From assembly GCA_023265625.1 (NCBI GenBank), contig JAHFST010000001.1, positions 97,265 through 161,264 of the forward strand: a DNA stretch of 64,000 nucleotides. Reading direction: 5' to 3'. Origin of the DNA: Deltaproteobacteria bacterium (GTDB taxonomy: Bacteria; UBA10199; JACPAL01; JAHFST01). This document shows, piece by piece, positions 3,152 to 62,268 of this stretch. The notes below the pieces were generated by a model. That model worked only from the letters and a program-made list of their open reading frames with translations. It did not search any database and was not told where the DNA came from. Position 1 is the stretch's first letter, and each line of letters begins with the position of its first letter. A program made the position numbers and the translations under genes.

Positions 3152-3182
3152 AAGAGGGGAACAGGTTGCCTGTTCCCCTCTT
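3152..3182 (+). terminator. Perfect 14-bp stem hairpin (AAGAGGGGAACAGG-TTG-CCTGTTCCCCTCTT) directly after pilA. A smaller hairpin sits at 3123..3137.
   Basis: Inverted repeat read directly. Followed by TTGTCATTTGT. The position is typical of a pilin-gene terminator or attenuator. Confidence 0.55.
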
Positions 3183-3200
3183 GTCATTTGTAGGGGGGCT

Positions 3201-4731: not shown

Positions 4732-4739
4732 GGTGAGTT

Positions 4740-5867: not shown

Positions 5868-5884
5868 TCTTTTTTTGGTGCTTT

Positions 5885-7009: not shown

Positions 7010-7199
7010 TATATTCAGGGGGAAGATACCCTCTCCCCCCTGAGGACCCCCCATCTGGTCGTCACTGACTCATCATTCGCTCCGCTTAACCGGCCGGAGT
7101 AAATCCGTCCGGTTAATGCTCGTTCACTATTGGGGAAAGTGTTGAAAGTGTTTGCTGAAATGAGAATAATCGAGTAGTACAGAAGCGCGGGGGGGCTCT

Positions 7200-8081: not shown

Positions 8082-8083
8082 CC

Positions 8084-27500: not shown

Positions 27501-30500
27501 CACGGGGGAGGGGACCATCGTGCTGTCGATTTGGAAGACATTCGTGTCACAAGAGGTCCCAACGATCTGGGTTGTGTAGCCCTTTTTGTCCGGAAGATTC
27601 GCGATGACAGATAGGTCAGGTTTGTTAGGGTCAACCTTCACATCCATCCCAGCAGCTAGATCGATGCAGAGAGGGCCGATGCAATTCTGTGCTTTCAGGG
27701 TTCCTTTTACTGGGGCCTTTGGTTCGTCTTCGTATTTTACGTACCGCATCAGGCACTGGTAGTTCTTGCTGTCCTGGGTGAACTTCTTCAGTTTGAAGCC
27801 ACCCCAGATTCGGGTTGAGGCCGGTAGCGTCAGGCCCTGCTCATGGTACTCATAAGACTCCTGCACATCGTTCCCTTGCAGAACGATCACATCGTAGGGC
27901 TGTTTGGTGCATGGGGTTTTGCAGGACTCGTAGGATTGTCGACAACTCGACTGCCAGGAAAAGGGACAGGAAATTCGGTCTTCAGTGCACTTTTGCTGGC
28001 AGGGCGCCGCTGCCGTCTGACAAAGTCCCGTTGGACTGTTGAGGCAGGCACCGAAGGCATTGTTGCAGCCTTTTAGGCACGGATAATACGTATCCGCGTA
28101 ACACGTCTTTAGCCCTGACGACAGGGGATCATTGGTGTCAGCGCACTCCTTTTTCATCGGTTGACAGGCCTTGTCACAGGTCTCCTTTGCCTGATCGCAG
28201 GTTGTTGACAGGAATTTGAGGCTGATATCCTTGCACTCTGGTTGATTGGCGCAGTTCTCTGTTTTACAGGTTGACTCCACGACATCGCAGGTGCCTGAGG
28301 TGCCAGCCTTGCAGCCCTCATATTTTCCATCGCAGTTTTGCTGGATCGCCTCGCAGAGGAAGGGGGGGGCATTGTTTTTCTGACGCTGTGTGATTTTGTC
28401 CAACGCATCCTTGAGACTATGGAACGGATTTCCGAGGGAGCCCAATGGTTCGGTAATATCCACTGCCTTATTGTAAGAGTTGTCCACTATGTCCAGCTTA
28501 TCGGGAATAATTTTGTCGATGAGACATCCGATGCCGACACAAGGAACGACCGCTTTTATCGGTGGTTTTGCGGTCACAAAGAAGGTGGTGCGCAGATTAG
28601 TCGGGATACCTTCCTGCAGGAGGACATTGTTGAGTATCTCCGCATGGGTCGGGTCCCAGACGGCATAATCCAACTTCCCATCCTTGTCGGCATCATATCC
28701 ATCCGGCTTATCATCATAGTTTGTGTCGAGGGTAGGGGGACAGGAGATAATCGCACACTTATTGTTGTTGATATCATAAACCTGTCCAGCGGGACAGGTG
28801 ATCTTGGCGGGATCTGTGCAGGTGCCGCTGTAGCAGACGGAACCACTGCTACAATCGTCCTTCTTGGTGCAGCCGGATTCCCCCGGAGACATTTTGCATA
28901 CCCCGAATTCGCAAATACCGGACTGACATTCCTTGGTTGCCTGGCAGGAGCTTCCCGCTGGTGACCCTGGGGGACATTGATCCGTCGCGTCCTTGGGACA
29001 CTTGTCTTCACTATCGGGGATCCCATCCCCGTCGGTGTCAATCCCGTTGGTGCAGGACCCACTGGTACAGGTTTGGCTTGGGGCACACTCAGAGACGGCC
29101 GTGCAGACCTTCTTTGATTTACCGACCAACTGGAAGCGCCCCTTGACCAGGTTCTGTTTGGCTCCGTTGCTCGTCTCGACCGTCAAGAGGGTATTGAGGG
29201 TGATGGGGGCGTCATAGGGTACGACCAAGGTGGACTGATAACCCTTCTCAGGAGGGGTGCCTAGATCGATGCACGCTGATTGGCCAGAGATTGTGACTGC
29301 GTTGTCACTCATCCCCGGATCTCCTACCTCCAGTGTTGCCGCCTGCGGGCAGACGCTCTTACCGTCTCGGTCAAAGAAGCGGACCTTGTAGAGGTACTCG
29401 CCCTGATTTGCCGTTGGTTCAACGGTCGGATAGGTAAAGTATAATTGGTAGGTGTATATCTGCATAGCCAAGCTGACGTCGATGGAATCGGTCTTGGGAT
29501 TGAGTGGGGAACCACCGCCGTAGCCGTTGTAGTCTCCCAGCAACTCGAGGTCGGGAGATACCCCCTTGCCATAGGAGGGCTGGGCCACCTTCTTCGGATT
29601 CTCCTTGTCTCCCTTATTGACATCGGAGGTGAGGGCCGAGACGTCATAGGGATCAAAGCCACCCTTCTTGGCCTGAGCGTTTTTATCGTCATCGCCGTAG
29701 TTTTTGACACCACCCGGATCGACAATGCCAGTACCGGCTGTAATCGCAGAGTCCGGTGAGAGTGTGGTACCGGCCGGAGACCCATCATCCACGACGAGAT
29801 TGATGGTCCCGGCAAACCCGGTCCAACCGGTCTTAACTTTATTGATGGGGATGATGGCCAGATCGACCATCCCGGTGGCGCCCCCCGAGTAGCCCCCGGC
29901 CACCACTAGTTGCTTGTTCGTACTATTGGGGATGAGTATTGCGTTGGCGCTTGGATTGCTGATCCCGGCGACGGGTATTGCCTTTGTGGTGTCAAACTCC
30001 ACGACGCTGGAATCATAGTTGATGGTAAACCCAAAGGTCTTGAGGGGTTTGTCCCCGACGTTGGCCCGGAAGGTGATATTTGGACCGTTTCCATTAGGGA
30101 TGACCGGGACAAAGCGGCCCGTTAAGGGACCCAGATCGAGATCGCCCACGTTGGCGTTCATGTTGACAGCGGCATGGTAGGTCAAGCTCTTGCTACCCAC
30201 AGAGAAGGTCAGTTTCACCGCCCCGTTTTTCTTTGGGGTGAGTTGCAATTGATCTGGTGGAAGGTTGGGGACCTCGGCGGATGGAGCGAGGGCAGGTCCA
30301 TCGTAGGCAGGCAGCGCCAGTTCGTCAATCTTTGTCGTCAGTAAGGATGTTTTGAAGGCGTTCCCATCCCCAGAGGTCAGGATCATTCGAGTCCCATCGG
30401 TGAATTTTCCAACGACCGTTAGGGGGTAGGAGGACTCGGCGACCCCGGAAAGGGTGGTGTCGAAGGCGACATCACCATTTGTTACTGGGAGCGATTCGTT

Positions 30501-33500
30501 GTCGAATCCCTGGAAGCCCTTTTCCTTGGGAACATTGGCACCCAGGTTGGATGTCTTGCCCCGAATGATGAACCCATCGAGGGTCGTGTTATCAGGCTTG
30601 CCTGGTTCAGGCTTGGTCTGGAAGGCGACCTCTTGCTCTTCAACGGTTAGTCCCAGGGTGGCATTGAGTTCCTTCCCAACGAGGGGTGGGAGAAACTTAA
30701 CTAGAATGTCCCCCGATTGACCCTTACTCCCATCGAGTGCGAAGCTGCCCGGCCATTTTGAATTGGAATTTCCATTGACTGGGATAGGTTCCGTAAAACC
30801 AGCGGGTACGGCGAGACTCGCCTTATCAGTTGGCAATTTGGCGGCCTCGTCTCCCCCAAGAAATATCGAAGACCCATCGGTCCATTGACCCGTGACGACC
30901 AGACGTAGCAATTGTTTCTTGTCATTCTGCCCTTCAATCTTTGAGAGGGTTGTATCCTTTACGGCATTGGCAAAGGTCCCATCCTTGGCAGGATTGTATT
31001 GGGGGAGTTTGGCCGGGTCGTAGTCCTCGTAGGTCTGGAGTGAGATCTTGGTGAGGGTATTCACAGGGAGTTTGCACGTCTGTTTCGGGATCCCCAGATA
31101 GTCGGGCTGGAGCTCAATCGTGACCCAGCCACCATCTGATGGTGGTGGGGTGTCTTGGACCTCCACCGTGTTAGTACTGGCCAAGACCTTGGCCGGTTGA
31201 CCGCTCAGATCCTTTCCGTCAATCGTCTTGATGAGGTTGGCCCCTTCCGTGACGACGTACTTGATCTTCGCTGGGTCCACCACATCCTGCTTCACTCCCT
31301 GTTTCAGAACCAGTGGACTGGTTGTTTTGAGAGCCAAGAGTTTCGCAGAGGCATCCTCGGTGCTGAGTGCCAGGGGATCACAGCCAGTGAGGGTTGCCGC
31401 AGGTGCCGGGATATTGATGGCGACCGTTGCGGCACCCTCTATGCCCTTGCCAAATTTGGCGGAAACATTTGTGGTCTTTTTGCCTGAGGTGGCCGGATGG
31501 ATCATGAGTTGGCCGGAGGCATTGACGTCGACTTTGATCACGGAGGGATCACCGATGGTAAGCAGTGCCGGTTTTTGCTGATAGGCCGTCAGGAAATTTG
31601 CAGTGACGTCATAACGGGAGTTGTCCTTGGTTATGAGCAACAGGGTAAGAGGGGTGCTGTCATCCAGAGAGGTGAAGGTGTTGAAGGCCATGGCCTCCAA
31701 GGTGTTTTTCTGGCTGACGTCGCCGGTCAGGGCCCCGAGGGTTGCGGGTGATTCGGTCTTGGTCATTTTCACGTGGGCTGGGACGACTAGGAGGGATTTA
31801 AAATTCTCACTCTCTGCTGAGACGGTCAGCTCTTTGGCGGCAATGGTTTTGTCTGCAACAACGATGCGGATCTCGGCTTTTCCCGACTCGAACGGGCTGA
31901 TGAGTCCTGCCTCCGTCACCGTGAAGACAGCTTTATCCGGGTTCTTGAAGGTCACATAGGGTGTGAGATCAAGGCGGATCTGGCCGTTATTCCAATAAAG
32001 ATGCGCCTGCACCTTGGGGTAGGCATCGTTCCCGTCCAGGTTGAGACCCTTCAGTTTGGGGATGGTGTCTGTTTTGGAGTCGGTTTCGACGATCAGCTTG
32101 GCCGGGTCTATCGAGGTGACATGGACTTGCATGTTGCCAACCGATTTTCCCGCATAGGTGGCGGTGAGATTGGCATCGCCTTCTGCCTTGGATTTTACCT
32201 CACACTTGACATCTGTCCCGACGGCGGTTGCACCGGACTTGTCTTCACACTTGAGGTTGTTTAGGTCGGCCCCTGTGATGAGGTTCATGCTTCCATCGTT
32301 TTCCACCTTCAATGTCCTGACCACGGTTGTTTGTGGGACACTGGCAGGGAGGACCAGTCCTGGAATCTTATCGTTCGAGAAGAGTTGGCCATTTTCAACA
32401 AATCCCAGGATGCCGCGAACTTCTTTGTTCAGGACGGCGATATTTCCCGTACCCGGTCCGGACTTATCGGCAATGAGTAGGGGTTGTTTCTCTCCCGAGA
32501 GCGACTTCTGTGCCGGATCGGTGTAGTACAACTGATTGGGTGTTCCTGAAATTGCGGTCGTCGCCGGGAGCGGTGTGGCTGTGGATTTAACCCGGAGGTG
32601 GAGGGTCGCGACTTTTTCTTTATTCGATGAGATCAGGAGATTGCCTGTGGCTGCGGAGGTGAAGGTGATCGGGGTGTTGAGGCTGATACCCTCAATGTCC
32701 CCGAAGCCTGTCGCAACCTCGATGGGTTTGGTTGCCTTCGGATCAAATTCGATCATGGTGCCATCAAATTTGATTTCAAACTGGAATGCTTGGAGACCCT
32801 TGCCCCCCGTATTAACGAAGAGGTCGGCAGCGAAGGATTCACCGGCTGTGAGGGGACGCTTGGGTAGTTGAATCCCAGCCTGGCCAGCGGTCAATTGCAG
32901 GTCCCCAACGATCCCCTTGAGGGTGATGTTTGCCGGGTCACCCGATGCTTGCAGGCTGTTCCCGTCGAGTTTTAACTTGACCGAGACCATTTTATCCAAA
33001 CCTGGTTCAAAGAGGGAGGGATCGAATTTGATGTCGCCACTGTAGATCCCCGGTTGTTGAGTCACACTGAGGGGGTTCGAGAAGAGGGTATTGCTATCCT
33101 TGGTGATTTCAGCCTCAGGGAGTAACCCACCCTGGTAAGGTCGGCCATAATCGTCGGTTACCAGGGCAAAGACCTTGACGGTGGGCAGATCGGAGTAGAC
33201 GTCGCCACGGGCCAGGATCACCTGGGCCCGGGTGGCGGCGCTATTCAGTTTGATCTCCAAGGGCTTGCTGTCTGCGACATTGCCACCTGCGCTGGCCTTG
33301 ACGGACACAGTCCCGGGTAAGGCCAGGTCTTCGAGGAGTCCCTGGTAGGTCCCGCCTTTGCCGGCTTCCTGCCACCAGAGTCCATCCCAGAAACCGCCGA
33401 CGAAACCGTCGGTTCGGCTTGGGGTAAAGGAAACATGTGCCCCACTGACCGGGAGGGCACCCTCTAGGAGATTACCCAAAATCTTGATGGTGACTGGAAG

Positions 33501-36500
33501 GGTGGACTGCTGAGCTTGAGCGTCCTTGGCGATGAAATTAAGATGGTAGGTTGTTCCTTCAGGCGCCCCCGTGGTGTTCCAATTAAATTGACCTGTCGAT
33601 GGGACAAAGGCTGTGTCTGGGACCTTGTTCGTGTCGCTTGCAACCTCGTTCCAAGAGAGGCCGGCATTACCCGCCGCCACCTGGAAGGAAACGATGGCCC
33701 CTGCGGCGACCTCGTAGCTGGTCTGGGTGGGCGAGGTGAAGACGGGGAGTTGATTCTTGATTGTCGCATCCGGGCAGAAGCCGTCCACCGGTGGTTTTTG
33801 ATCCGGGCAGGAGGCAGCCATGCAATTGGGTGGTTGCGCAGCATCACAACATTGATTTGCATCGTAAGTCTTGTCGGCAGGGCAGCTGGTGGGTATGCAA
33901 CCGGCCTTGCCAGCGACGACCTTGCAGGTGGTTCCGTTACAGGTGATTAAGGAACAGTCTTCGGGGGGCTGGCAGCTGCTTCCATCAGCGTTGCAGCACT
34001 GCTTATTGATCGGGTCAAACTGCATGGCCTCCGGGCAGGTATCATTTTTTTTGCATTGTTTGGTGTCAGGCTGGTAGGTGGTGTCTATCGGACAGGTGCC
34101 GCAGTAGTCGAAGAGACCGTCGGTTGGGATGCTGTTGTCGATGGGATTCAGGCCCCCCTGACAGCCTGTTGGATCCTTGCTGCAGTCACCGCTGGCATCA
34201 CAACACTTGGTGGCCTGTCCGGCCGCCCCTTTGCATGTCAGCCCCACATCACACACGATTCCGTAACAATAGTCGACGGCCTCTGGATTGATGGTGACCT
34301 TTTTGACCGGACCTGAGCTTAGGTATTCTTCCATCCAAAGATTTTTTCCTTGGGCGTCAAATTGACTGATCCTGACCTTGACGTTGAGTGTGGGCAATTT
34401 GGGATTGAGATCCGATTTGATAAATTCGTAGACCCCTTGTGCCGTGTCCGCTGTCCCCACCAGCTTTGCCTCGACCGTCTGCTTCAAGTCTTCGAGGATA
34501 AACTCCACCTTGATATTTTTGTTGATCGATTTCGAGGGTTTTGCGCCGGGGCCGCTTACCGTAGCCGTCAAACGAATGGTGCCGAGGTTATTCTGATAGG
34601 GGTATTGAGCGTCAACATCGACCCACAAGGCATTCCCCACCAGGATCTTTTGCAGGTATGACGTGTCGTTCGAATCGACGGCTCCGTTAAAATCGGCGTC
34701 GGCATCGTAGAGGGGAAATTTTTCCGGGGTGACACTGTTGGTCACGATGGCGTTTTGGAGGCTCTGGATGTCATCGGAGGAGAAGCCTTCGATACTGTTC
34801 ATATCCGCTCGCCACCCGCCCGGTGGGTCCATTTCGCCCATCCCGGCGACAATCGGTCGTCCCTCCACGGGGATTGCTGCGCCGATGGGGTTGTTATCCG
34901 GATCATAGAGGGCCTTGATGATCCCTGACAGCTTGGTGACCTGTTTTTCTTGCTTGGTCGGGATGAATTTGATCTGAGCAATCTCCAAGAGGCCTTGTTT
35001 TTTGTTGAGCCCACCGGAGAAGGTGCTGACGATCTTGATGGTTCCAGTATCGGGGTCGGCACCCGGTGTGAAGGTGTAAGCGGAATTTTGGAGATCCTTC
35101 CCAGGGAGGATGGAATTACCAGGTTTGCTATAATCGGCGATCTTGAGAACGTCCTTATCGTATAGGATCTGGATCTCAAAGTTCCCGAGCGGTGTTTTGT
35201 CGGTATTAACCCGAACGGGCAGCGTAAATTCGCCGCCGGACTGGTCGGGGAAGGGGACTCCCAATTCTGGGCCGATGTCGATATCGCCCACGGTGGGGGT
35301 CTCGTTGATGGCCAGCTTGAGTTCCTCTTTGGTATCCAAGGTGAGTTTGTTGCTTGGATTGATGTTGGCACTGAGCTTGACGGCGCCATTTTCGTGTGCG
35401 GTGAGTGTCAGTTTGTTGTTGGCCTCACTCAAGGTGGCAAAGTCCTTCAATTGATACTGATTAGGGGGGCCGGTCTTCAGATCACCGGCCGTGACATCCA
35501 GGAGCCCCGGGACTTCGATGGTTCCATCGTCACTACGGACCAAGAGGGCCTGGGTAGCGTCCTTGTCATACTTGGTAATAATGTTGACGAAGTGTGGACT
35601 TTCATCGGAGGCGCTCAAGGTCTTATCGGTCAGGGGAGTGACCTTGCTATTGCCCGCGGTGAATTCGTTGCTTTGAATGTGGAGCTCACTGATGTCGTCC
35701 GGTATGGGATCGATTGTGAGCTCCAGGGACTTTTTCTTGTTATCGTAACCTTGCCAACCCAAGGCAATGGTGGCCTTGTTTTCATTCGTATCCGGGATGC
35801 CGCGCACAAACATCCTCGGTTTGTTGAGGGTTGCCCCACCGGTCACATCCAACTGGAGTGACACGTTGTCCTTGAAGGGGGTGAGGTCGAGGCTGTCACC
35901 GTCGGTCAGAATAGCCTTCGCCCAGAGCCGGACCCATTGGTAGGCGCTGGATTTGGCGATCTTGTGCAAGGTTGTTTTCGCTGGTGCGTTGTCATTCTCG
36001 GGGTAGGGGGCGAGGGTCTTGAGCTCAAACCCTTGGAGTGTCACAATATCAATAGTCAATTTACGAGCCAGTCCCATAGCCTTGATGTTTAGGGTGGCGG
36101 AACCGCTATTTTTGGCTCCCTGATTCATCATCAGGGTCAGCGCTCCGTTAAGATCGATAAAAAATTTCGGGCTACTGACATTGGGTAAGGCGCTCATGGT
36201 AGGTTCGGCCTGCTCGGTGACATCGATTTCCTTGGATCCAAATTTGGCAAAGATCTTGAAGCTTTCTTTGGTGGAGTACTGTTTGAGGATTGTTACAGGA
36301 TCATTCGGCGACAGGGCCAGTTTTAGATTTTTTCCTACCGGAATGATCTCGTTCGTTGGGACCTTTTTCAGGATTAGCTCTCCAGCGGGAGGGATGACCT
36401 CGACCAAGGTGTCACTATCCGTGGCAATTATTTTTGTTGGGTCGTTCTGGTCCGGCAGCTCCGCCTTCAGGTGGACTTTGCCTGGCAGGGTGGAGCTTAC

Positions 36501-51500: not shown

Positions 51501-54500
51501 CAGGCTGAGTCCCGCTTGTTTCAGTTGGACGAATTGATTTGCGGTCAAGATCAAGGGGGCATTAGGGACACCGGGAAGGTCATCGCTCCAGACCGGTCGG
51601 AGGGTGAGTCTGCCCCTTTGGAACCGGTCCGCCTGGTTGGCTCCCTCGATCACCCGAAACAGGAAGGCGCCGTCTTTCTTGGGCTGGGCGACTGCATTTT
51701 TGAAACTTGCGGGGCCTCCGAGGTCAAAGTCCTCCCAGACCTCCATCTTGAGATCCTTGAGGGTCACGACCTGAAATTCACAGGTCTGCGGGGTGACGCC
51801 GAAGAGTCCGCCGACGTCGAGCTCCAGTTTGACCGGTCCGACCCCGGTCCCTTTGCTGGTGACCGTGACCTTTCCAGCCAGATCCGGTGCTCCCACGGTG
51901 ATAAGGTCTCCTCCAGAGATTGGAGTGACCTTCACAAGGGGGAGGATGGTCTTTGCGTTGGTCTGAACGACGAGGGTAGCCGTGGTCGGAAGTCCGCGCA
52001 GGAGTGCGGATGCATCCCCCGCCGTAACCGCCATCCCTCCCGTCGGGCACCCCTGATTCGGATTGAGATCCGGTTTGGGGATGTCAATCACTACCTGGTT
52101 CTGGTGGGGAATCTTGAGCGTCTCCCCGAGATTTTTCAAGTTGGCCCGGACGAAATAAGGTTTGTCCCCGTTGGAGGCGAGCGCCTTGATCCGCGTGTGG
52201 GTGTTGTCGGTGAATGTGGCAAAGGGCTGTGGATTGCCCACCTCGTCAACCAGCGAGATCTCATCCGGTGAGAGCAGGGGAGTGATATCGCTCCAAATTT
52301 CCTTCCCTCCCTCGTCAAACAAGGCCCAGAAGCTGAGCGGGACCTCTTGGAACGGTTGTGAAAGGTAATTAGTGACCGTCGCTAACCCCTCTCCCTTGCC
52401 AAAATTGGGATCGGTCCCATCAAGGATGGAGAGCGGAAGAGGTGGCTTAAGGTCGACATGCCCCGGGATGGTGACATAGATGGTGGCGGGCTGTTTTTCC
52501 ACCTGCGTGATGGCAATGGTGGTTTTGGTTGCGTTGACGGGGTTTCCGTTCAGTGTAACCACCACGTTTTCGCTAGATTCTGCCCCAGGCGCCCCCTTCA
52601 CGCCGATCAGCGAACCATACAGGGGATTTGCGGCATTGACCTGAGAGAGAGAGAGAGAGTTCGAGACCTGGAGTCCGATCTTGGCAAGTCCGGTAAGGTT
52701 GATTGGCTCCACCGCGCCGCCGAAATCGGTGTAGACAAAGGCGCGGGCGGTCTGCCAGAGGGACGGGTTGACCCCGCTGAATCGGTCCAGGGTGGTGTCA
52801 CTCACAAAGAGTTTGATCTGATCGGAGGCCAGTTTCCAAGCCGTCACGCCAATCCCGTCAAAATTCTGTGCGTTGTTGTAGACCGCTTTCAGGGTATCGT
52901 TGCCGCTCTTGGCGACGCTGTAATTTCCCTGATCGGTTTGGATGACTTGTCCTAATGGGATGAGCGAGATGGTCTTTGCCGAATCAGGATCGAAGATCCC
53001 CTTGCTGGTGACCACCCGGAGTTCCACGGAGGAGGCCTTGGGGGGTGCGCCGGCCAGGGAGAGATCGATCAGGTAGCTGTCCTTGGCCCAGGCGAAGATT
53101 CCGCGGTCGACCACTGGCTTGACGGTCACCTGGCCGGAGGCGTCGGTGACCCCCGTCTGATCGGCCACGGAGAGGGTAGCCGAACCGTACTCGGGGAAGT
53201 TTCCTCCCGTTTTGTGGTAGAGGGTGGCACCCCCTGTGGCGGTTGGTGTGACGATGGCCATCACCTTCGGATCGACTTGGACGGTCAGGAGGGCAACCTC
53301 GAGTTTTGCGCCCGGCCCGATCGTGTCTGGGCAGCTACTTGTGAAGGCGACGGAACCGGTATTCAAACCGTTGGGTGTATAAGCCTGGAAACAGCTGGCA
53401 TCCTTCCCCTTGTTGATCTGCGTGACGGTCAAGGGGGGAGTAAAATCAATCTTGAAAAAGAAGCTGTGGAGGTTCTTATCTCCCGTATTGACATAAAGCG
53501 GGACGGTGAAGGTCTCACCGGGAAGCAGCGGGCGTTGCGGGAGCTGGATCCCGGCGGTCTCTGCGGGGAGCTGGAGTAGTTCCTTGGCAGGGATGAAGGT
53601 GATCGGGACCTGCTGGGCCGGGTCGAGTTTGATGGCCCCCTGGTTGGCCTGGACACTCAAGGTCCCGTTTTTGGAAAATAACATCTCCTGTTGGTAGAGA
53701 CCGGCGGTCGTCTTGGTGGCGTTACCGGCCGGTTGGCCATCCACCAGAAACTGAACGGAGTCGGGATCGACCGGCCGTCCGCTGCTGTCGGTCACAAAGG
53801 CGAAGGCCTTGATCTTTTCTCCACCTGGTGCCGATGATTCCGGCGTGTAGACCTCGCCCCGATTGGTCAGGAGGTGGAGCTTGGCCGGTGTCCCCTTGAC
53901 CAGCCAGGGTTGTGGCACGGCGGTCCCGCCGGCTGGGATGGTGGCCTGCAAAAAGGCGGAACCGGTCCGAGCGACATCCAAGATTTTTTCTTGATAGCTT
54001 CCGGCCTTTTCCTGAAGCCAGAAGGCCTGATGGGGACGTCCCAGATCGGGATCCTTGCCGGCGATGTCTTTGATCGCGAAGTCGAGCGTGGCCCCCTTGA
54101 CCGGTGACCCCTTCACGGTGGATCCTTTGGCGACAACATTGATGGTGAAGGTGACGGTGATCTTGTCTTTCGGTTTCCCGGTTGGATCCAAATCATTGAT
54201 GGTGAGGGTGAAGGTTTTTTCTCCCAGGTCCTCCTGTGTGACGGGCCCCCAGGCGAAGACCCCAGCCGGGGTGATTTGAGCCTTGATCCCTGGTGGCGGG
54301 GTCACCTCGAAGAGGAGCCCATCCTGGTCAGGATTCAATGTCTGGGCGCCAAAATCGATCGAGACGGTGGCGTCAACTTCAAAAGGTCCGAATTTTTTGG
54401 GGCCCTGATACACGGGGAGTTGATTGGAGTTCGGGAGTTGGCAGCTGCCGTTTATCTCTCCCACGGGGATGTTGCAGACCTCTTCCCCTTTGCAGTCCTC

Positions 54501-57500
54501 TTTCTTTTGACAACTTCCACCCCCTTGGCAGCTTCCACTCACGCAGACTTGCCCTGGACATTCACTCGAATCCTTACAACCGGTCCCGCCAGCGCATTGA
54601 CCTGCCACGCAGGTCTGGGTCCCGGCACAATCGGCAGGCTTTTGACAGGTTCCCCCGCCTTGGCAGGTCTTATCGACGCAAATCTGGCCGAAGTTGCACC
54701 CATCCGCGCAATCGTTGCCTCCAGTGCAGCTTCCCTGGAAGCAGGTTTGGGGTGCGACGCAGTCGAGCTTCGAATCAGCGCAGGTGCCGCCGGAGCAGTT
54801 ACCATCAGGACAGGATTCGCAGGTGCCGGTGGCGTTGCAGAGCTTGCCGGCGCCGCATTGACCGTTGACGGTGCAGGAGAGGGCGCATTGCCCGGTGTTG
54901 AGATCGCAGCTCTCTCCGAGTCCCTTGCAAACAACCGAGGTACATTTATTTTTACAAATTCCATCCAGGGGATCGCAGGTGTCCCCCGCGGCGCAGCCCT
55001 TGCCGGCACAGAGGTTGGGTAGGTCCGCACACTGCCCGGTGGCGGGGTTGCAGACGAGATTGGCGGGGCATGGTGGCTTGTCAGTGCAATTGTTTTTGCA
55101 GACCCCCAAGTTATTTTCCACGAGACAGATCTCTCCCAACGGACAGATCTTTGCCTTACAGGGGCCGTCCTGTCCCGTGGCACCGTTTAGCACCTTCTTG
55201 TCAAAGTCTGTGGGGGGGAGGTAGACGACGTTCTTGTCCTCTCCCGTCTTGGTGAGTGACGAGACCTTGGCCTCGAAGGTGCAAGTGTCGTTGGATTGCA
55301 GATTGAGCTTGAACTCCAGGCTACAGTCGACCGGATTGAAGACGCCACCGCTGCTGTCGGTATATTCCTTACTGGCGTCAGGGTTGCCAGGGCAGACGGC
55401 GCTCAATTTTGCGGCCACGTTTTTGGCACATTCGAGCTTGTCTGGTCCGCTTTGATCATTCTTTGGTTGGCCCAATTTCAGGAAGACGCTGTATTGACCG
55501 CCTCCGTTGTCCTTGATGCTCAGGTCGGAGAGGAAGAAGACCTGGTTCACAATCTGAAGACAACGGGTGACATCCCCCAACTCGAGGAAGCCGTCCGGAT
55601 AGTAGTCGGCCTTGGAGGCGGGGACCTCCCCAGCTGTAATTTTGTAGGGAGGGGAATAGGTCGAGAGGAGCCCTTGTTGGAGTTTGAGACAATCGAAGCC
55701 GGTCAGTTTGTTATCCGCGTCAAAGTCCCAGGCCGTGATATCCAGCACATCCGGATCGACCAAGCCGGCACCCGCGACAATTGGACGTGGGAGGTTACCG
55801 CCGATCGGTTGATTGCCCGGGTCGACCAGGTTGAAGACCGTACCGGTCATTGCGGCGATCTTGGCCGCGCCCTTGGTGGCCTGGAAGGTAAGGGTGCCGA
55901 GCGTGACCATTCCGTCTTTATCCCCGGTGGCGGGGGTGCCGAACAGGCCGTCGAGCAGGACGGAATTGCCTTCAATATTTGGCGAGACCTTGAGTGAGGG
56001 GTCACCGGCCGGGACAAACTTGACCACCTTCAAGACCGACGCCGGGTTCCAGGCGAACTCGATCTTAAAAACCGACAATTTTTTATCTCCCACCTTGACG
56101 CGGACCGGTGCGTCAAAGGTTTCTTGATCCGTTAAGACCGGAAAGAAGCGTCCGCCGATCTTGCCGAGGTCGACATCTCCGACCTCTGGGAGGAGATTCA
56201 AGGCCAGCGGGTAGTCCTGGTTGGCATTGGCGCTCTTGGCGGTGATAACGGTCCCGCCGTTGCCGGTGATTGTTACCGTCCCTAGTGCGAGGTCTTGCCA
56301 TTTCGAAAAGCTGTTGTCCTCTTCGGGCGTGTTGGCATCATTGGGAAGGTTAAGATTCTTTTTGGAGAATTGGATGATTCCCGGGATGACCGGTCCGGTG
56401 GTATCGACCAGGCGCGTCCGTGTCCCGTCCTCAAAGGTCCCGACGACCCGGATCTGGCTCTTGCCACCTACCGGTCCCGAGAGGGTGTCTTTAAAAGTTA
56501 TTTCATCCGACGCGCCGATCCCCTCGGTGCCGCGTAAATGCAAGGTCGCCAAGGCCTCGGCCTCCCCGACGATCTGGATGGAATGCTCGCTCTTGAGAGA
56601 GCTTTCCCCCTTGGCCCCCACGCCCGGATAAGTTGCCTGGATGGTAAAGGTCGCGACCTGTTGCGGCAGGATCCGCCAGACATTGTTTTCTTTCACGACC
56701 TTGAAGGGGTTCGCGATCGTCTGGTCTTTCATGCCCTCGTTCAAGGTCAGTTTGCTTTCCGGATGATTCAAGAGGTCGATTTTTGGGTAACCCGGATCGC
56801 TCCACAGGCCACGGACGGTGAGCCGTCCCTTTTGCCACTCCGCGCTCGCTTCCACCTTGGAGAAGAGGGCGTCTTCAATATTTTTGCCATCGATCGCGGG
56901 GGTGAATTGACCCGCGTCGCCTAATTCCTGCGCGCTGAAATCCTCCGAGGTCTTGATCTCGAGCCCGGTGAGGCCCAACACCTGAAGATTGGTGGAGGCT
57001 ACGAAGGAACCACCGGGGAGGCCGCTGATCGAACAGCTGAGGGTGACGACGCCGGTGGCGGTGTCGGTCGATTCGATGTTTCCTTTTTGTGGCAACGTCA
57101 CCAGGTTGCTCGAAGGGGCACAGGTGGTCTGCGCCTCTTGCGTCGCATCCCAGGTCCCGCCTCCCTTGAAGTGGACGATCACCTGGTAGGTGGTTCCGGT
57201 TGGAATTTTTTCCATGGTGGCGGCCGGGTCGGTTGCGTTGATGGCGATGTGTGTTGCCCCCAGTTTGACCTCAACATTGTCCGCATCGGGGACCTTGACC
57301 TGGACGCCCCCTTTGCCGATTTTACCGGTTGCAGTATGAGTGGCTGCGATCACGGTGGCCCCCGGTCCCTTCGGTTTGATGACTGTAATCATTTTTTGCT
57401 GCTCATCGGTGAGGGGGACCACGACGGAGTTATTGTCGCTGGCCAGGGTGATCTCGGAGCCGACCAGGGAGGTGAGGTTGAATTTTTTCACACCGTCCGC

Positions 57501-60500
57501 CTCGGCGGCATATCCCCAGACCTCGACCGGCGCGGTGTCGGCCATCGAATCGATCTGATTGGTGACGTAGGCGAAGGCCTCGGTGGTCCCTGCATCGAGG
57601 TTGGTCACGGGCGAGGGGTTGATGGCATTCCCTTGGCCCGATTTGCCCAAGAAGATGGTGGCCGGGACCAGGACCTTGAGATCGGTCAGCGCGACTTCTT
57701 CATCGGTGCGCGCGACGGTCTTTTGCTGCGCCTCGGGAAGCCCCGGGACGGAAAGGGTTGTTGGCCCGTTCTTTGTGCCCGGGATAATCTTGCCTTTTTC
57801 CACGGTTGCCACCGCCGGGTCGCTACTGCTCCAAGCGGCGTACGGGGCGAGGTCAATCTTGAGCCCTGGGGTGTTGGGGTCGCTCCAGAGGAGTCGGGCC
57901 CGGGTCTGTTGATATTGATTGGAACCTTGAATCTTGTTGAGGGTGAGATCTTCCAGCTCTAAGGATAGATCCTTCGGGTCGGCCACGGAGGAGGTAATTC
58001 GCACCCCTCCTTGCGAGAGTCCGCTGAATGTCGCCTTGAAGAAGTCTTGCCCGCCCTTGGCTGGGGCGTAGCCAGCCCCCTGCAAGGTCACGATCCCGCT
58101 GTTGGCCCCTGCATAAGCAAACGAGGTCTTTGCGGTGACATCGTCGGGATCGGAGATCCGATTGTAAAGGGCCCGTGCCTGGAAGGCCCCTTTGACATTG
58201 AGCGAAGCGGCCAATCCCCCCTGGTAAACATGTTCACGGTCGGCCCAGGCCAGCAGGGTCTTGAGCTGTTGTTCAATAACTTTAATACTCCCTTGGGGAG
58301 TCTCACCCGCGACGTTGCCCGTGAGGTCGGCGATGCGGAGCGGTACTCCTTGAACACCCAGGCTGGTTCCTTTTGCGGCGAGTTTTTGGAGCTGGATCTT
58401 CTTGCCAGAAAAGGCCTGTTGCGTGCCCCCCTTGGCCTCCGGTGTGACTTGAAACAGGATGGTTGCCAGTTGGAAAAATCCCTTGGGGCTTGCGGCGTTC
58501 GGGGCTGGGTTGGTCGCACTGAAACTTAGTTTGCCTGGTTGGAGCAGATGATTGTTGTCGTCCGGGGTCCAGGCGAGTGGCCAATTGACCAACGTGATTT
58601 TGGGGAGACCTTTTTGCGTGACGGGGGCGACTAGGTCCTTGCCGAAGTTAATTTCTACCTGAAAGCCGTTGACCACTTGGTCTAGGCCGCCCTCTTTGGC
58701 GTTAACCCAGAGTTGGACCGGAAAGGTCTCGCCGGGGAAATGAGGTTCTTGGGGAATGACCAGTCCCATCTCTCCTTCGGCCAAAACAATCGGTTCCGCC
58801 CGTTTCGCCAACACCAGGTCGGTGGAGACCGGCAGCATGTTGGGGGCTGAGACGGTTAGTGTGCCGGGACGATCAGTGTCATTCTTGAAGGCGTTTTGCG
58901 GGACGGAGAGGGCTTTGTAAAAAATCCCCTTGTCTTTGTAATCGGCCGAGAGGTTGATCAGACCGGCCATGGGCACTCCGGAGACCGAGAGCGTGAATTT
59001 CACTGCGCCGCTGCTGCGCTCATCCAGCGGTCGTCCGGCGGCATCCCGCAGGAAGGCGTAGGCCACCACGGTTGGCTGCGAGGCGTAGTATCGAGGGAGG
59101 CCGCCTGAGTCGTCCCCTTGTAGCACCAAATTGACCTGGGTGGGGAGCGTGTCCACAGAGACATTTTTGGCAGCGGCGGTTTTTTTGCCGGCGGGGATCT
59201 GGGCGTTGATCGCATCAAGCGCGACATCGTTCAGCCCATAGATGGTCCCCTGATAGTTTCCTTGCCCTGCCTCTACGAGCAGGTTGGACCAGAGCCCCAG
59301 GCTCGGGAGAAACTCGATCGGGACCCCCTCCACCCCTTCGCCAAAACTCTCCGGTGCAAATTTTACGACGATCAAGATTTCCTTGATGCCGCTTCCCCCC
59401 TTGCCGTCGCTCAGGGTCAGTTGGGCGGAGTAAGGATCGGCCGATACCTCTTTGGCCTTGGGTTTCCAATTAATTTTCCATTGAGTGCCTTGGTCGGTCT
59501 TGGTGGGCGACGAGAGCTCGGCACTCGTTCCTTCCAGGCCGCTAAGCAGCAGTTCCAGGGTGTCGTTGTCTGCATCGGTTGCGGTGAGCGTCAATTCATT
59601 GTCTTGATCGGCGAAGAATTCAACCCCGCTGGGCGCGGTCAAAATCGGGGCGTGATTGGTAGGGGCGACGGGTGTGACGCAGACCCCGGCGGTCAGGTCG
59701 CAGACCTGGTCAGGCCCACATTTTGTCAGATCGGTCGCCGAACATTCTCCCTTGGTCTCATCAGCATCTTTTACCCCGTCTCCGTCATCATCATCGTCTG
59801 TGATGTCCGGGATCCCATTGTTGTCATCGTCGGTGTCAATGTTGTCGGGGATCCCGTCTCCATCGGTGTCTTGGTTCCCATCGTCGATCGGCCCCTTGCT
59901 GACACAGACATGGTTTTCACTGCACGCGAATCCCTCGTTGCACATACTGTCTTCCGTGCAGTCCTTGCCGCCGATGGCGCATTTCAAGTCGGGTTGGCAG
60001 CTTTGCTTTTCAGGGCAATCATTGTGTTCCGCGCAAACCTTGCCTCCGGGGAGGCAGGTGCCGTTGGTGCAGGTGGTGCCGCCTGTGCATGTGTCGAATT
60101 GACTGCAGGGCGTGCCTCCCTGAATGCAATTCTCCCCGGAACAAAAGGAGCCCGAGGCACATTGGCTGTTTTTGCTGCAGGTCCCGCTGGAAGAGACGCA
60201 ACTGCCGTTGGAGCAGGCCTCGCCGATCGGGCACTCTCCGGTGCTTTTGCAGAGCGAAGCGGCCACCTGGCAGATTTTACTGGAACAAAAATGTCCCTGC
60301 GGGCAATCGCTGCTGATGATGCAGCCCTTTTTACCTTCGATGAAGTCAGGGGGCAGCGGCGGGGCGCAGGCCTCATTGATACATTGGGAACTGTCTGCAC
60401 AGTCCTGAGCGGTATGACAGGTCGCCTGACCCGACTGGCAGACCTTGCCCGAGCAGTAGGCCCCGGTGGGGCATTGGCTGTGAGTTGCACAGGGAATCAC

Positions 60501-60866
60501 GGGTAACCAACAAAAACCAGCCAAACATTGTTCCGAGGCACGACAATCGCTGACTTGCTTACAGGTGCGAGATCCCTCACCTGGATCACACGCAGAGCCA
60601 ATTCCATTGTTATTTAAATCGCTTTGTTCCGAATTTGGGAGGAGGGGGCAATTGTCCGTGGGATCGACGATACCATCGCCATCGGTGTCATTTTTGAATT
60701 CATTAGTCCCGATGATCTCGGACCCGGGGTTTTGCGCGTTGTCTGAACCACCGTCTTTCGAACAACTACAACCGCCCCCTTGGGCGGACATCTGTCCGGA
60801 GAGGAAGAGAAAACCGTTCCCCAGTAAGAACAGCAATAAAATTTGTCGTGCTATCCGTGCTCGCAA
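24600..60866 (-). CDS. Giant secreted modular protein, 12,088 aa. Signal peptide, cysteine-rich repeats, thrombospondin type-3 Ca-binding repeats, many cohesin-like and Ig-like beta-sandwich modules, dockerin-like modules, a C-terminal right-handed beta-helix, a Q-rich coiled segment and a Pro/Thr-rich tail.
   Basis: Single uninterrupted 36,267-nt frame. TTG start with RBS. Domain motifs read from the translation. Confidence 0.9.
24603..24900 (-). repeat. Low-complexity Pro/Thr/Ala-rich C-terminal tail of the giant protein. No LPXTG, PEP-CTERM or RTX motif.
   Basis: [15 protein letters not shown]...[19 protein letters not shown] at the end of the ORF. Confidence 0.7.
25815..27700 (-). other. 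Right-handed parallel beta-helix (PbH1-type) domain of the giant protein, ending with a DLGAYE motif
   Basis: [25 protein letters not shown] and NRVISNN rungs. Terminal [10 protein letters not shown]. Confidence 0.6.
27950..29110 (-). repeat. Cys-rich knot 7 with thrombospondin type-3 repeats
   Basis: C-codon-dense stretch. [17 protein letters not shown] and [15 protein letters not shown]. Confidence 0.6.
33770..34280 (-). repeat. Cys-rich knot 6 (no TSP3 repeats)
   Basis: [16 protein letters not shown]...[14 protein letters not shown]. Confidence 0.6.
34625..34860 (-). other. Two-segment dockerin-like Ca-binding module: (GF)[13 protein letters not shown] and [24 protein letters not shown]
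   Basis: Reverse-complement codons read directly. DxDxDGxVDxxD loop followed by a helix, twice. Confidence 0.55.
38430..39200 (-). repeat. Cys-rich knot 5 with a thrombospondin type-3 repeat cluster (at least 6 repeats)
   Basis: [37 protein letters not shown] and similar repeats. Confidence 0.7.
39510..39700 (-). other. Two-segment dockerin-like module: [22 protein letters not shown] and [18 protein letters not shown]
   Basis: Reverse-complement codons read directly. Confidence 0.55.
43780..44510 (-). repeat. Cys-rich knot 4 (no TSP3 repeats)
   Basis: [40 protein letters not shown]... Confidence 0.6.
48960..49870 (-). repeat. Cys-rich knot 3 with a thrombospondin type-3 cluster
   Basis: [40 protein letters not shown]... 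Confidence 0.7.
54430..55170 (-). repeat. Cys-rich knot 2 (no TSP3 repeats)
   Basis: [27 protein letters not shown]... through ...GSCQLP. Confidence 0.6.
58670..58762 (-). other. Example A-type cohesin-like module core ([31 protein letters not shown]). At least 5 further copies follow later Cys-rich knots.
   Basis: Pattern LPxRPLxPGETFxVxLxVNT...F.F.I.FD recurs through the protein. Confidence 0.5.
59680..60700 (-). repeat. Cys-rich knot 1 with flanking thrombospondin type-3 repeats, at the N-terminus of the giant protein
   Basis: [25 protein letters not shown]. About 10 CxxxxDCxxGxxC units. [22 protein letters not shown]. Confidence 0.7.
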
Positions 60867-60994: not shown

Positions 60995-61708
60995 TTATCG
61001 TTTTGATAATAATTTTTTGATATGGCGGAGGATGAAGCGGGCGATGAGGCGCTTGGAGGTTAGCGGGCTACGGGTGATATTTTTGTCCCGATCCAGCAAA
61101 AAAACTTGGTTCTGATCGCTTGCAAAGCCTTGGTGGTTTTTGCCAACCTGGTTGGCGACAACCAGATCGCAATTTTTTTTCAGCAGTTTGTCACGCGCAT
61201 TTTTAATGAGATTTTGTGTCTCCGCCGCGAACCCGACCAGTAGGGGCGCTGCTTCAGCCGGAGGCTGATCCGCCTCTGGCGGATGCTGCGCCCTTGCCCG
61301 TTTCATTTTTCCCAACGCCGCCAAAATATCCGGGGTGCGGACCAATCGGATCGTCATCGGTCCGGGACGTTTTTTCACCTTGTGTGGGGATGTTTTTTCG
61401 GGGCGGTAGTCCGAAACCGCGGCGGCCATGATGAGGATGTCGGTCTGTTTGGCGTGCTGCATGACGGCGCGGTACATTTGTTGGGCGGAGGTGACGGGGA
61501 TGACGCGCATGGGTGGGGGCGTATGGCAATACGCCCCTACAGGCCCCGAGATTAACATCACCTTGGCCCCTTGTTTTTGGGCCTCCTCCGCCAAGGCGTA
61601 CCCCATCTTGCCTGACGAGGGGTTGGAGAGAAACCGGACCGGATCGAGGTATTCCCGGGTGGGACCCGCGGTGATCAAGATGCGTCGGCCTTTGAGAGGT
61701 TGTTTCAC
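60995..61708 (-). CDS. coaB: Phosphopantothenate-cysteine ligase (CoaB), encoded separately from CoaC
   Basis: RILITAGPTREYLDPVRFLSNPSSGKMG motif. Confidence 0.8.
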   Translation of the reverse strand: MKQPLKGRRILITAGPTREYLDPVRFLSNPSSGKMGYALAEEAQKQGAKVMLISGPVGAYCHTPPPMRVIPVTSAQQMYRAVMQHAKQTDILIMAAAVSDYRPEKTSPHKVKKRPGPMTIRLVRTPDILAALGKMKRARAQHPPEADQPPAEAAPLLVGFAAETQNLIKNARDKLLKKNCDLVVANQVGKNHQGFASDQNQVFLLDRDKNITRSPLTSKRLIARFILRHIKKLLSKR

Positions 61709-62268
61709 GCGGGTTTAATTTTTTTGACCTTTAGGATCTTTTCCATTTCTTGTAACAGCACGGCCGTCTCCGGCAGGCGACCCTTGCCGGTATAGCCGCA
61801 GGCCAGCGATCCGGAGTCAGGCTCCAAGACTCGAAATCCATGTTTTTGCAGCTGCGCGACATTTTCCTGGGTGATGGAATTTTTCCACATGTGCACATTC
61901 ATCGAGGGGGCTACCAAAATCGGGGCGCGGGTGACGCAGACCAAAGTGGTTAACAGGTCATCGCAGATTCCATGGGCCATCTTGGCCAGGATGTCAGCCG
62001 TGGCGGGGGCGATCATGACCAGATCCGCCTTATCAGCTAGCGCAATATGTCCCATCTCCTGCTCTTCGGTCAGGCTGAAGAGTTCGGTATGGACCGGGTT
62101 GCCACTCAAGGCCTGGAAGGTGAGGGGGGTGACAAACTGTTGGGCTCCCTTGGTCATGACCACATGGACCGAGGCCCCTTGTTCCGCGATGCGCCGCACC
62201 AGATCACAGCTCTTGTAGACCGCAATTCCGCCGCTCACGCCCAATGCGATGTTTTTCCCTTTGAACAT
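61705..62268 (-). CDS. coaC: Phosphopantothenoylcysteine decarboxylase flavoprotein (CoaC)
   Basis: KNIALGVSGGIAVYK flavoprotein N-terminus. ATGA overlap with coaB. Confidence 0.8.
   Translation of the reverse strand: MFKGKNIALGVSGGIAVYKSCDLVRRIAEQGASVHVVMTKGAQQFVTPLTFQALSGNPVHTELFSLTEEQEMGHIALADKADLVMIAPATADILAKMAHGICDDLLTTLVCVTRAPILVAPSMNVHMWKNSITQENVAQLQKHGFRVLEPDSGSLACGYTGKGRLPETAVLLQEMEKILKVKKIKPA

Follow-up and report, generated by a model that had tools for sequence, protein, structure and literature searches.

We analysed a window of 64,000 nucleotides (nt) from a Deltaproteobacteria bacterium (contig JAHFST010000001.1, positions 97,265 to 161,264 of the forward strand), in which a giant gene sits among housekeeping genes. 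The gene is a single open reading frame (ORF) that takes up the whole repeat region of the window and stays uninterrupted over 36 kb:

24600..60866, minus strand: giant ORF of 12,088 amino acids (aa), 1.28 MDa, isoelectric point 4.7, net charge about -410, TTG start

Judged from its sequence, the product is predicted to be one secreted, very acidic modular protein of 1.28 MDa. It contains 309 cysteines, mostly packed into a few dense clusters, and a hydropathy scan identified its signal peptide as the only hydrophobic segment.

Periodicity of the giant protein

An original prediction for this locus had described a super-repeat of roughly 5.3 kb with seven cysteine-rich knots and about six tandem super-modules of ~1,780 aa. 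By locating the peaks of cysteine density, we placed the centres of the knots (K1 to K7) at nt 60228, 54814, 49390, 44132, 38795, 34019 and 28499, and the spacings between them (5.42, 5.42, 5.26, 5.34, 4.78 and 5.52 kb) were near-identical to the predicted ones. As self-blastp of the whole protein returned the identity match alone, we compared 300-aa tiles of the protein with the whole protein, which served as the self dot-plot that had been suggested as a check. Off-diagonal tile matches were found only near offsets of 1,750, 3,500, 5,300, 7,000 and 8,650 aa, with E-values down to 1e-22 and 23-35% identity across most of the unit length (short matches between thrombospondin type-3 (TSP3) repeats were higher), and the expected periodicity near 1,750 aa was thus present. 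The six units between the knots (U1 to U6) are 1,381-1,531 aa long, collinear from end to end and 20-27% identical to one another, and a hidden Markov model (HMM) built from them matched the protein six times end to end, with scores of 1,434-1,698 bits. The six-fold periodicity is therefore real and far above chance, and one knot plus one unit measures ~1,750-1,800 aa, in line with the predicted super-module.

55218..59621, minus strand: U1 (aa 416-1883), type 1, full length with cadherin-like domain; HMM score 1,698 bits
49830..54386, minus strand: U2 (aa 2161-3679), type 2, full length
44517..48965, minus strand: U3 (aa 3968-5450), type 3, begins at HMM position 81, no cadherin-like domain
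39207..43733, minus strand: U4 (aa 5712-7220), full length; closest to U2 and U6 (25% identity)
34320..38462, minus strand: U5 (aa 7469-8849), type 5, begins at HMM position 78
29127..33719, minus strand: U6 (aa 9050-10580), full length

At the DNA level, a sensitive blastn comparison of the gene with itself detected no similarity between units. The sole self-matches were 118 nt at 72% identity within K5 and 45 nt at 80% between K5 and K3, both in TSP3 repeats, and Tandem Repeats Finder reported just four trivial 21-nt arrays in the gene. The duplications are thus ancient and the gene is not recombinogenic, which answers the question, raised with the prediction, of whether they were old or recent. 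The lack of DNA repeats also makes a repeat-driven mis-assembly of the gene unlikely.

Relatives of the giant protein

Using the unit profile, we searched 1.84 billion representative proteins exhaustively with hmmsearch and obtained matches to 483 proteins at E<=1e-3 (197 at E<=1e-10 and 59 at E<=1e-30). The best matches were 2,400-7,900 aa long and none exceeded ~8,000 aa; the library therefore appears to have a length limit near ~8,000 aa, to which we attribute that the giant protein did not find itself. Word-indexed homologue searches with U2 and with the C-terminal domain gave no match, and no relative turned up in 185,579 species genomes searched with aa 2947-3680, the C-terminal half of U2. 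Every close relative is a metagenomic sequence without annotation, in most cases a singleton, and NCBI and UniRef contain none of them. Their knots recur every ~1,650-1,800 aa and their unit counts range from one (P0007) through two (P0003, P0005 and P0006) and three (P0002 and P0004) to four (P0001). An end-to-end match to the unit HMM, cysteine knots between units and a C-terminal beta-helix are common to the giant protein, P0001, P0002, P0003, P0005 and P0007. By these sequence features, the giant protein and its relatives are assigned to a previously unnamed giant-protein family with one to six units.

The locus of P0005 (L085) is syntenic with the window and has the gene order CoaC - giant gene - Zn-phospholipase C - UDG - GAF-GGDEF - QueA - IspH. 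Its neighbouring genes and those of the window share 55-70% identity. For the giants, the figure is only 33-34% between matching units and 23% between head domains, and this syntenic orthologue has two units where the giant protein has six. The giant gene thus evolves much faster than its neighbours, and by whole cassettes.

Two further kinds of protein were found with the unit profile. P0010 (6,939 aa) and P0012 (5,337 aa) carry one unit, followed by ~5,000 and ~3,500 aa, respectively, of another, highly regular cysteine-rich repeat (...CGxxDGCGGxCxGxCPGxNExC...), which is another route to giant size in the family. P0021, a protein of 7,819 aa from a Tara Oceans scaffold (ERZ28653435; L088 2652-26111), resembles a type I membrane protein with a C-terminal transmembrane segment and a cytoplasmic tail, and it looks eukaryotic. 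It is matched by the Pfam families TNFR_c6, Ig_TMEM132 and Cohesin and, in 10 stretches, by the unit profile, from which it follows that the cohesin-immunoglobulin (Ig)-dockerin unit is not confined to bacteria.

Domain composition of the units

Pfam by itself covers only a small part of the units, and it took profiles to recover the module order. Each unit runs (cadherin-like) - Big_1 Ig - cohesin A - Big_2 Ig domains - cohesin B - dockerin - final beta-sandwich, so that the predicted recurring order of an A-type cohesin-like module, Ig-like domains, a B-type cohesin-like module and a dockerin-like module was recovered. Compared with the PDB, profiles made from the six paralogues gave suggestive matches, which became significant after family members had been added. 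The predicted secondary structure is nearly all beta, except for two helices at the dockerin, and a super-module consists of a disulfide-rich knot followed by a rod of mostly beta-sandwich domains, about 12-13 according to the models, which make this count approximate.

Profile comparison showed that the A and B cohesin modules are homologues (hhalign probability 96.9%, E 1.6e-10). Two copies exceeded the cut-off of Pfam Cohesin (PF00963, 24.1 bits), namely cohesin B of U5 (50.5 bits) and cohesin A of U6 (28.5 bits), and the other 10 modules fell below it and are linked by the A-versus-B profile comparison and weaker matches. Cohesin matched four of the six A-type copies and was, bar one chance-level match, the only Pfam family to match any A or B module. 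At the B position, a 16-unit profile aligned with the type II cohesins 2bm3 and 2b59 (E ~0.05). Similarly, Foldseek matched the B module of U2 to the cohesins 1g1k, 2vo8, 2vn5 and 4uyp with a probability of 1.0 (template-modelling score TMt 0.43-0.55), as single-domain hits, from a segment of the AlphaFold model of the C-terminal half of U2 with a predicted local distance difference test (pLDDT) score of only 58-71.

58218..58790, minus strand: cohesin A of U1; Pfam Cohesin on A-type copies, hhalign A versus B
53061..53576, minus strand: cohesin A of U2; Cohesin E 0.067, AF2 (AlphaFold 2) pLDDT 60-81 in the segment
47889..48377, minus strand: cohesin A of U3; profile comparison
42351..42929, minus strand: cohesin A of U4; profile comparison
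37329..37862, minus strand: cohesin A of U5; second Pfam Cohesin stretch in its super-module
32367..32900, minus strand: cohesin A of U6; Pfam Cohesin above cut-off
55698..56210, minus strand: cohesin B of U1; A-versus-B profile, type II cohesins 2bm3/2b59
50391..50921, minus strand: cohesin B of U2; Foldseek cohesin matches from a low-confidence model
45123..45710, minus strand: cohesin B of U3; profile comparison
39624..40163, minus strand: cohesin B of U4; profile comparison
34776..35318, minus strand: cohesin B of U5; Pfam Cohesin above cut-off, E 1.4e-9 when scanned alone
29649..30176, minus strand: cohesin B of U6; profile comparison

For the Ig domains between the cohesins, the 16-unit profile matched the Big_2 structure of LigB (2mqg, E 6e-6), and Pfam Big_1 was detected in 6 of the 16 units, just before cohesin A. 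At their start, U1, U2, U4 and U6 have an additional domain of ~80 aa, which bears a weak likeness to cadherin repeats (E 0.2-0.6) and is missing from U3 and U5. Behind cohesin B, a profile of 23 family copies aligned both F-hand segments with PDB dockerins (4fl4_A, E 3e-8), and Pfam Dockerin_1 (PF00404) matched 8 of these 23 copies, at best with E 4.5e-9. On the strength of these profile alignments, the segment after cohesin B is classified as a true type I dockerin homologue.

55515..55715, minus strand: dockerin of U1; two F-hand segments, the second without the acidic residue at position 3
50205..50408, minus strand: dockerin of U2; Dockerin_1 E 0.098, two helices predicted
44913..45140, minus strand: dockerin of U3; first loop degenerate
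39474..39641, minus strand: dockerin of U4; profile alignment
34605..34793, minus strand: dockerin of U5; second loop canonical
29418..29666, minus strand: dockerin of U6; both loops degenerate, with insertions

Composition of the knots

Six of the seven knots share a four-cysteine repeat of ~21 aa (C-x5-C-x5-C-x4-5-C). All 55 matches of the corresponding regular expression in a scan of the whole protein lay inside knots, and an HMM trained on K1 alone found nine copies in K1, seven in K4, at least five in K2 and about three each in K3, K5 and K7. K6 is built differently, from the repeat CPxxxx[YF][DQ]xxxxxC, which occurs three times in K6 and once in K7 (0.03 expected from shuffled sequences) and recurs in the knots of relatives. 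The knots had been predicted to be regions of one cysteine-repeat type, and this description suits six of them.

59679..60692, minus strand: K1 (aa 59-396); one TSP3 repeat, nine four-cysteine repeats, then an acidic TSP3-like stretch (aa 333-370)
54441..55190, minus strand: K2 (aa 1893-2142); compact four-cysteine repeats, no TSP3, no curated family match
48942..49844, minus strand: K3 (aa 3675-3975); four-cysteine repeats and a TSP3 cluster (aa 3857-3975)
43785..44483, minus strand: K4 (aa 5462-5694); seven four-cysteine repeats, no TSP3
38427..39167, minus strand: K5 (aa 7234-7480); a few four-cysteine repeats and the largest TSP3 cluster (aa 7295-7480, 108 bits, seven stretches)
33774..34268, minus strand: K6 (aa 8867-9031); three copies of CPxxxx[YF][DQ]xxxxxC(C), no TSP3, no curated family match
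28740..29105, minus strand: K7 (aa 10588-10709); three four-cysteine repeats, one TSP3 motif (aa 10610-10625), one CPxxxxYD

The best-matching family for the four-cysteine repeat was Pfam DUF7107 (cut-off 24.6 bits), for which we found no literature. Its cut-off was exceeded by K1 (43.2 bits in seven stretches), K4 (29.2 bits) and K7 (25.5 bits); K3 scored below it (14.2 bits), and K2, K5 and K6 had no match. The proposed resemblance to the Myxococcus cysteine-rich repeat was not upheld, as TIGR04201 matched K3 only and stayed below its cut-off (16 bits, E 0.01, against 25 bits).

The protein contains ~15 TSP3 motifs, which had been assigned to knots 1, 3, 5 and 7 but not to knots 2, 4 and 6. 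For K3 and K5 this assignment is strong, with Pfam TSP_3 (PF02412, cut-off 25 bits) scoring 74-80 and 80-108 bits, respectively, and K2, K4 and K6 indeed lacked any match. K1 is marginal, with one N-terminal repeat and one acidic stretch, and scores just above the cut-off (26.3 bits), and the one motif of K7 is sub-threshold (15.5 bits). The region predicted as knot 7 comprises two parts: the short knot K7 proper, and a separate cysteine-rich region (aa 10776-11000) that belongs to the C-terminal domain.

The termini of the protein

60747..60866, minus strand: signal peptide and GGGCSCS motif (aa 1-40), from the hydropathy scan
25767..28541, minus strand: conserved C-terminal domain (aa 10776-11700); cysteine-rich region, then right-handed parallel beta-helix
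24603..25766, minus strand: C-terminal tail (aa 11701-12088); Gln/Ala-rich, then an Ala/Thr/Pro-rich low-complexity end, no transmembrane segment

Just past the signal peptide, the protein carries the motif GGGCSCS (aa 30-36; window ~60759-60779, minus strand). Gly-rich cysteine motifs are also present in P0001 (GGGGGGGCGC), P0002 (GGGGCSC) and P0007 (GGGGCTC), as well as at the extreme C-terminus of P0004, and P0003 (FVAC) and P0006 (SSGC) have canonical-looking lipoboxes at the position of GGGCSCS. The sequence context suggests that GGGCSCS may be an unusual lipidation or attachment signal. In the annotation of ENA contig ERZ27296333 (342.7 kb), the giant gene has a length of 12,078 aa, so that translation would begin 10 codons past the TTG (window 60837-60866, minus strand). 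The longer form seems more plausible, as the shorter one drops the positively charged n-region of the signal peptide (RARIAR).

At the other end, the beta-helix was recognised by Pfam Beta_helix (29.8 bits), with choice_anch_Q below its cut-off (19.9 bits). The C-terminal domain is kept in P0002 (27% identity over 891 aa, E 8e-63), P0003, P0005 and P0007, the last with DUF1565 on record. In the tail that follows, the Gln/Ala-rich stretch looks helical by eye, and the tail of P0002 is similar to that of the giant protein.

Phylogeny of the units

A neighbour-joining tree of 23 units (1,141 well-occupied columns, 300 bootstraps) provided the unit phylogeny that the original prediction had called for. 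Four unit types formed clades with a bootstrap support of 100: type 1 (G_U1, P2_U1, P7_U1, P3_U1), type 2 (G_U2, P2_U2, P1_U1, P1_U2, P3_U2), type 3 (G_U3, P5_U2, P2_U3, P6_U2) and type 5 (G_U5, P1_U3, P5_U1, P1_U4). U1 is orthologous to unit 1 of P0002 (37% identity, bootstrap 100), U2 to unit 2 of P0002 (35%, bootstrap 89), U3 to unit 2 of P0005 (33%) and unit 3 of P0002 (28%; clade bootstrap 100), and U5 to unit 3 of P0001 (36%) and unit 1 of P0005 (34%; bootstrap 100). Units are thus 33-37% identical to their counterparts in other proteins, compared with 20-27% within the giant protein, and its six units were monophyletic in 0% of the bootstraps. Neither sign of a recent expansion (inter-unit DNA identity of >80%, or the six units as one clade) was seen.

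The six units are accordingly placed by their sequences as ancient paralogues with no recent tandem expansion: the duplications are old, and types 1, 2, 3 and 5, which are common to several proteins, predate the split of the giant protein from its relatives and have kept their identity across proteins. The order of unit types is 1-2-3 in P0002, as in the first half of the giant protein, and 5-3, directly adjacent, in P0005. Copy number changes via gain or loss of whole knot-plus-unit cassettes.

The alternation noted in the original prediction reflects two old unit classes, one with the cadherin-like domain and one without it that, in the giant protein, follows a TSP3 cluster. It holds for units 2 to 6, where U2, U4 and U6 are full length and U3 and U5 are truncated after TSP3-rich knots, and breaks down at U1, which groups with the full-length units. 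We also considered a rule by which a TSP3 knot is always paired with a truncated unit. In the wider family, truncated units usually lack a preceding TSP3 and the rule fails (Fisher p = 0.67), so that the pairing is confined to close relatives.

The alternation had been taken to suggest an ancestral duplication of two super-modules (10.7 kb). In its simple form, a lineage-specific tandem duplication of such a block, this is refuted as a recent event, and we rate it as very improbable overall. It would account for the larger aligned length at the twofold than at the single offset in the tile comparison, for the likeness of U2, U4 and U6 and of the K3/U3 and K5/U5 plans, and for the superclade formed by the truncated units (bootstrap 92). 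However, U3 and U5 (21% identical) were sisters in 0 of 300 bootstraps, each having closer counterparts in other proteins, and U4 and U6 paired with a support of just 47%. Moreover, K4 and K6 are made of different cysteine repeats, U1 stands outside the alternation, and in P0005 a type 5 unit directly precedes a type 3 unit. A block duplication is conceivable only before the divergence of all these lineages, where the data cannot show it.

There is next to no chance that the giant ORF is a pseudogene or an assembly artefact, i.e. a chimera of mis-joined repeats: the sequence is metagenome-derived and giant repetitive genes are prone to mis-assembly, but this gene has no DNA-level repeats that could mis-join, its 36-kb frame is intact, the same gene is present at 12,078 aa on the 342.7-kb contig, its first 2 kb are 100% identical to the window in contigs of three other samples, and the unit-type order 1-2-3 recurs in P0002. 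A seemingly different gene beside CoaB in another locus (L082) turned out to result from faulty gene calling on a fragment that matches the window at 100% identity.

Possible function

The explanation we favour, with moderate confidence, is that the giant protein forms a surface fibre of the adhesin type that is stiffened by Ca2+, braced by disulfides, anchored at its N-terminus and tipped with a beta-helix head. This reading is based on Sec export without a further membrane segment, the extreme acidity together with Ca2+-binding modules (by sequence, TSP3, dockerin and perhaps the cadherin-like domain), the knots, the strings of Ig domains and the conserved distal beta-helix. Surface location and polarity are suggested by the lone signal peptide, the lipoboxes of P0003 and P0006 and the family-wide C-terminal head. 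The N-terminus would be held at the envelope, possibly via lipidation of the GGGC cysteine, while the units would act as Ca2+-stiffened spacers and the disulfide knots as rigid joints, together holding the head far from the cell. The head itself would likely be a glycan-binding or glycan-cleaving module, and the 12 cohesins and six dockerins could make Ca2+-dependent protein-protein contacts inside a single fibre, from one fibre to another or with partner proteins.

Several observations weigh against this explanation. The GGGC motif is not a canonical lipobox, and its cysteine lies ~10 residues past the hydrophobic core. All six dockerins of the giant protein score below the Dockerin_1 cut-off of 22.9 bits (U2 13.3 bits, E 0.098), and several of their loops lack Ca2+-ligand residues or contain insertions, so some copies may be purely structural. 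AlphaFold models from the six-sequence alignments reached a mean pLDDT of only 47-49, which makes domain counts and fold matches approximate, and fold searches with these models mostly returned generic strings of beta-sandwich domains. Owing to the apparent length limit of the searched library, the closest giant relatives were possibly missed. Finally, no closer orthologue of U4 or U6 was found among the retrieved units.

Alternatively, the protein could be the scaffoldin of a complex resembling a cellulosome or 'planctosome', in which its cohesins recruit dockerin-bearing enzymes and its dockerins plug into an anchoring cohesin protein. Non-cellulosomal cohesin/dockerin proteins were reportedly described by Peer et al. 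in 2009. As in adaptor scaffoldins, homologous cohesins and type I dockerins occur here in one polypeptide, and in numbers, and non-cellulosomal complexes of the two have been proposed for Planctomycetes in the 'planctosome' model (PMC6461901). However, we detected no carbohydrate-binding module (CBM), glycoside hydrolase or peptidase domain in the giant protein, and no gene for a dockerin-bearing enzyme in the 64-kb window or beside the orthologue. In addition, the cohesins of scaffoldins are joined by short linkers, whereas those of the giant protein are embedded in units of ~13 domains, separated by many unrelated ones, and are very divergent, mostly falling below the Pfam cut-off; the dockerins are partly degenerate. 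Since it has no CBM and neither the window nor the orthologous locus encodes associated enzymes, the giant protein is not a cellulosomal scaffoldin, and a scaffoldin role in the broader sense is unlikely.

An equally doubtful alternative is that the protein serves a predatory or epibiotic bacterium as an organelle for attachment to its prey or host. It would then correspond to the 'Dockerin-type' giants of Omnitrophota and be exported via the nearby system resembling a type II secretion system (T2SS) or type IV pilus (T4P). The dockerin and TSP3 content fits this class of extracellular proteins, in which both repeats accompany a large number of beta-sandwich domains (West-Roberts et al., bioRxiv 10.1101/2023.11.21.568195), and a GspE/GspF/PilM/PilQ cluster lies ~12 kb from the 3' end of the gene, much as such loci have been reported beside giant genes in the same study. 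On the other hand, the secretion cluster is not found beside the syntenic orthologue, the protein has 12 kaa instead of >=30 kaa and no C-terminal transmembrane region, and the nearest relatives of the neighbouring IspH (66-69% identity) come from metagenome-assembled genomes labelled Deltaproteobacteria, Myxococcota or Pseudomonadota, not Omnitrophota. The neighbouring genes thus lend no support to an Omnitrophota origin of the locus.

In a third alternative, which we regard as no more probable than these two, the super-module would be a self-complementary unit, with the dockerin of each unit perhaps binding a cohesin of a neighbouring unit or molecule, and the giants would polymerise into a Ca2+-dependent extracellular lattice or sheath; the cohesin-plus-Ig unit seen in the eukaryote-like P0021 could mark the prokaryotic source of the eukaryotic TMEM132-type adhesion architecture. 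If true, a cohesin-dockerin system would here build a surface structure rather than recruit enzymes. As a single chain that carries 12 cohesins and six dockerins, with no enzymes nearby, the giant protein offers a test case for a non-cellulosomal, possibly self-assembling role of these modules.

Comparison with known systems

LapA, SiiE and MpIBP are giant Gram-negative adhesins of megadalton size, acidic and with Ca2+-binding Ig-like spacer domains. The proposed surface fibre would share with them a polarity in which the anchor is at the N-terminus and the ligand-binding region at the C-terminus. In contrast to these adhesins, it has a Sec signal peptide and no detected RTX (repeats-in-toxin)/type I secretion signal or retention module, its spacer is a unit of ~13 domains present six times and not one repeated Ig domain, and its knots have no counterpart there. 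The building block in the evolution of this family is a ~13-domain cassette of 1,500-1,800 aa and not a single domain. By this route, a megadalton protein changes its length by cassettes (one to six, even between syntenic orthologues) while the cassette types keep their identity, unlike the recent tandem amplification seen in many adhesins.

Eukaryotic TMEM132 adhesion molecules combine a cohesin with tandem Ig domains. The succession of a cohesin and Big_2-type Ig domains in the units is an architectural parallel, and the bacterial units had no match to Pfam Ig_TMEM132.

The Myxococcus MtsC model matched K3 (73 bits) and K5 (160 bits) through their TSP3 repeats, far under its equivalog cut-off of 350. 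MYXO-CTERM is absent from the giant protein, and the similarity is limited to these repeats.

The Omnitrophota 'Dockerin-type' giants were compared by their published description. Like them, the giant protein has many dockerin and TSP3 repeats (here six dockerin-like modules and ~15 TSP3 motifs) that lack DNA-level identity, and an adhesion role has been proposed for them. They differ in length (>=30,000 aa versus 12,088 aa), in having a C-terminal transmembrane segment with an intracellular region, where the giant protein has no transmembrane segment past the signal peptide, and in their F5_F8_type_C or CBM35-like barrels, none of which we detected. Conversely, two cohesins per unit and a super-module of ~1,750 aa bounded by cysteine knots are features of the giant protein, and its host, judged by the IspH neighbour gene, lies outside Omnitrophota. 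A cluster of giant proteins with dockerin and TSP3 has also been reported elsewhere (bioRxiv 10.64898/2026.06.07.730766), and our data extend the dockerin/TSP3 class beyond Omnitrophota. Together, the unit HMM and the cohesin and dockerin profiles cover ~90% of the giant protein, in which Pfam annotates almost nothing.

Genomic context

The T2SS/T4P-like cluster occupies window 21-14452 on the plus strand and includes the following genes:

21-1283, plus strand: GspE/PilB
1290-2516, plus strand: GspF/PilC
7200-8081, plus strand: PEP-CTERM-associated ATPase-like gene
8812-9783, plus strand: PilM
10926-12500, plus strand: PilQ secretin
12497-14452, plus strand: TPR lytic transglycosylase

No such cluster was present within 10 kb at the syntenic locus L085, and its linkage to the giant gene is therefore not conserved. 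The giant gene is separated from the Zn-phospholipase C gene by an AAA_14/DUF4143 ATPase gene (window 23227-24534, minus strand), which is missing at that position in L085 and is thus probably a later insertion.

On the other side, CoaC (Flavoprotein) and CoaB (DFP) are encoded by separate ORFs that overlap by 4 nt (window 60995-62268, minus strand), not by the usual fused CoaBC. In L085, CoaC alone adjoins the giant gene, and a DFP gene of only 35% identity is found elsewhere in the locus. Upstream of CoaC, an ORF of 541 aa (window 62337-63962, minus strand) had no Pfam match at E<=1e-3 and is located where the GC content of the window is highest (0.61). Beyond CoaC/CoaB, the source contig (ERZ27296333) carries several PIN and PhdYeFM toxin-antitoxin genes and an RCC1/WD40-like gene; toxin-antitoxin and HEPN/NTase genes also flank the P0007 locus (L087).

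The GC content is uneven inside the giant gene, with 0.58-0.59 at nt 48000-60000 (U1, U2) and 0.52-0.56 at nt 24000-46000 (U4-U6 and C-terminal domain). In the flanks, it is 0.49-0.55 downstream of the gene (nt 1-24,000), 0.54 in the first 2 kb upstream and 0.61 in the last 2 kb of the window. Two long ORFs on the opposite strand within the giant gene (window 42525-43472, plus strand, 315 aa; window 59262-60506, plus strand, 414 aa) most likely reflect chance in a coding region of this length.

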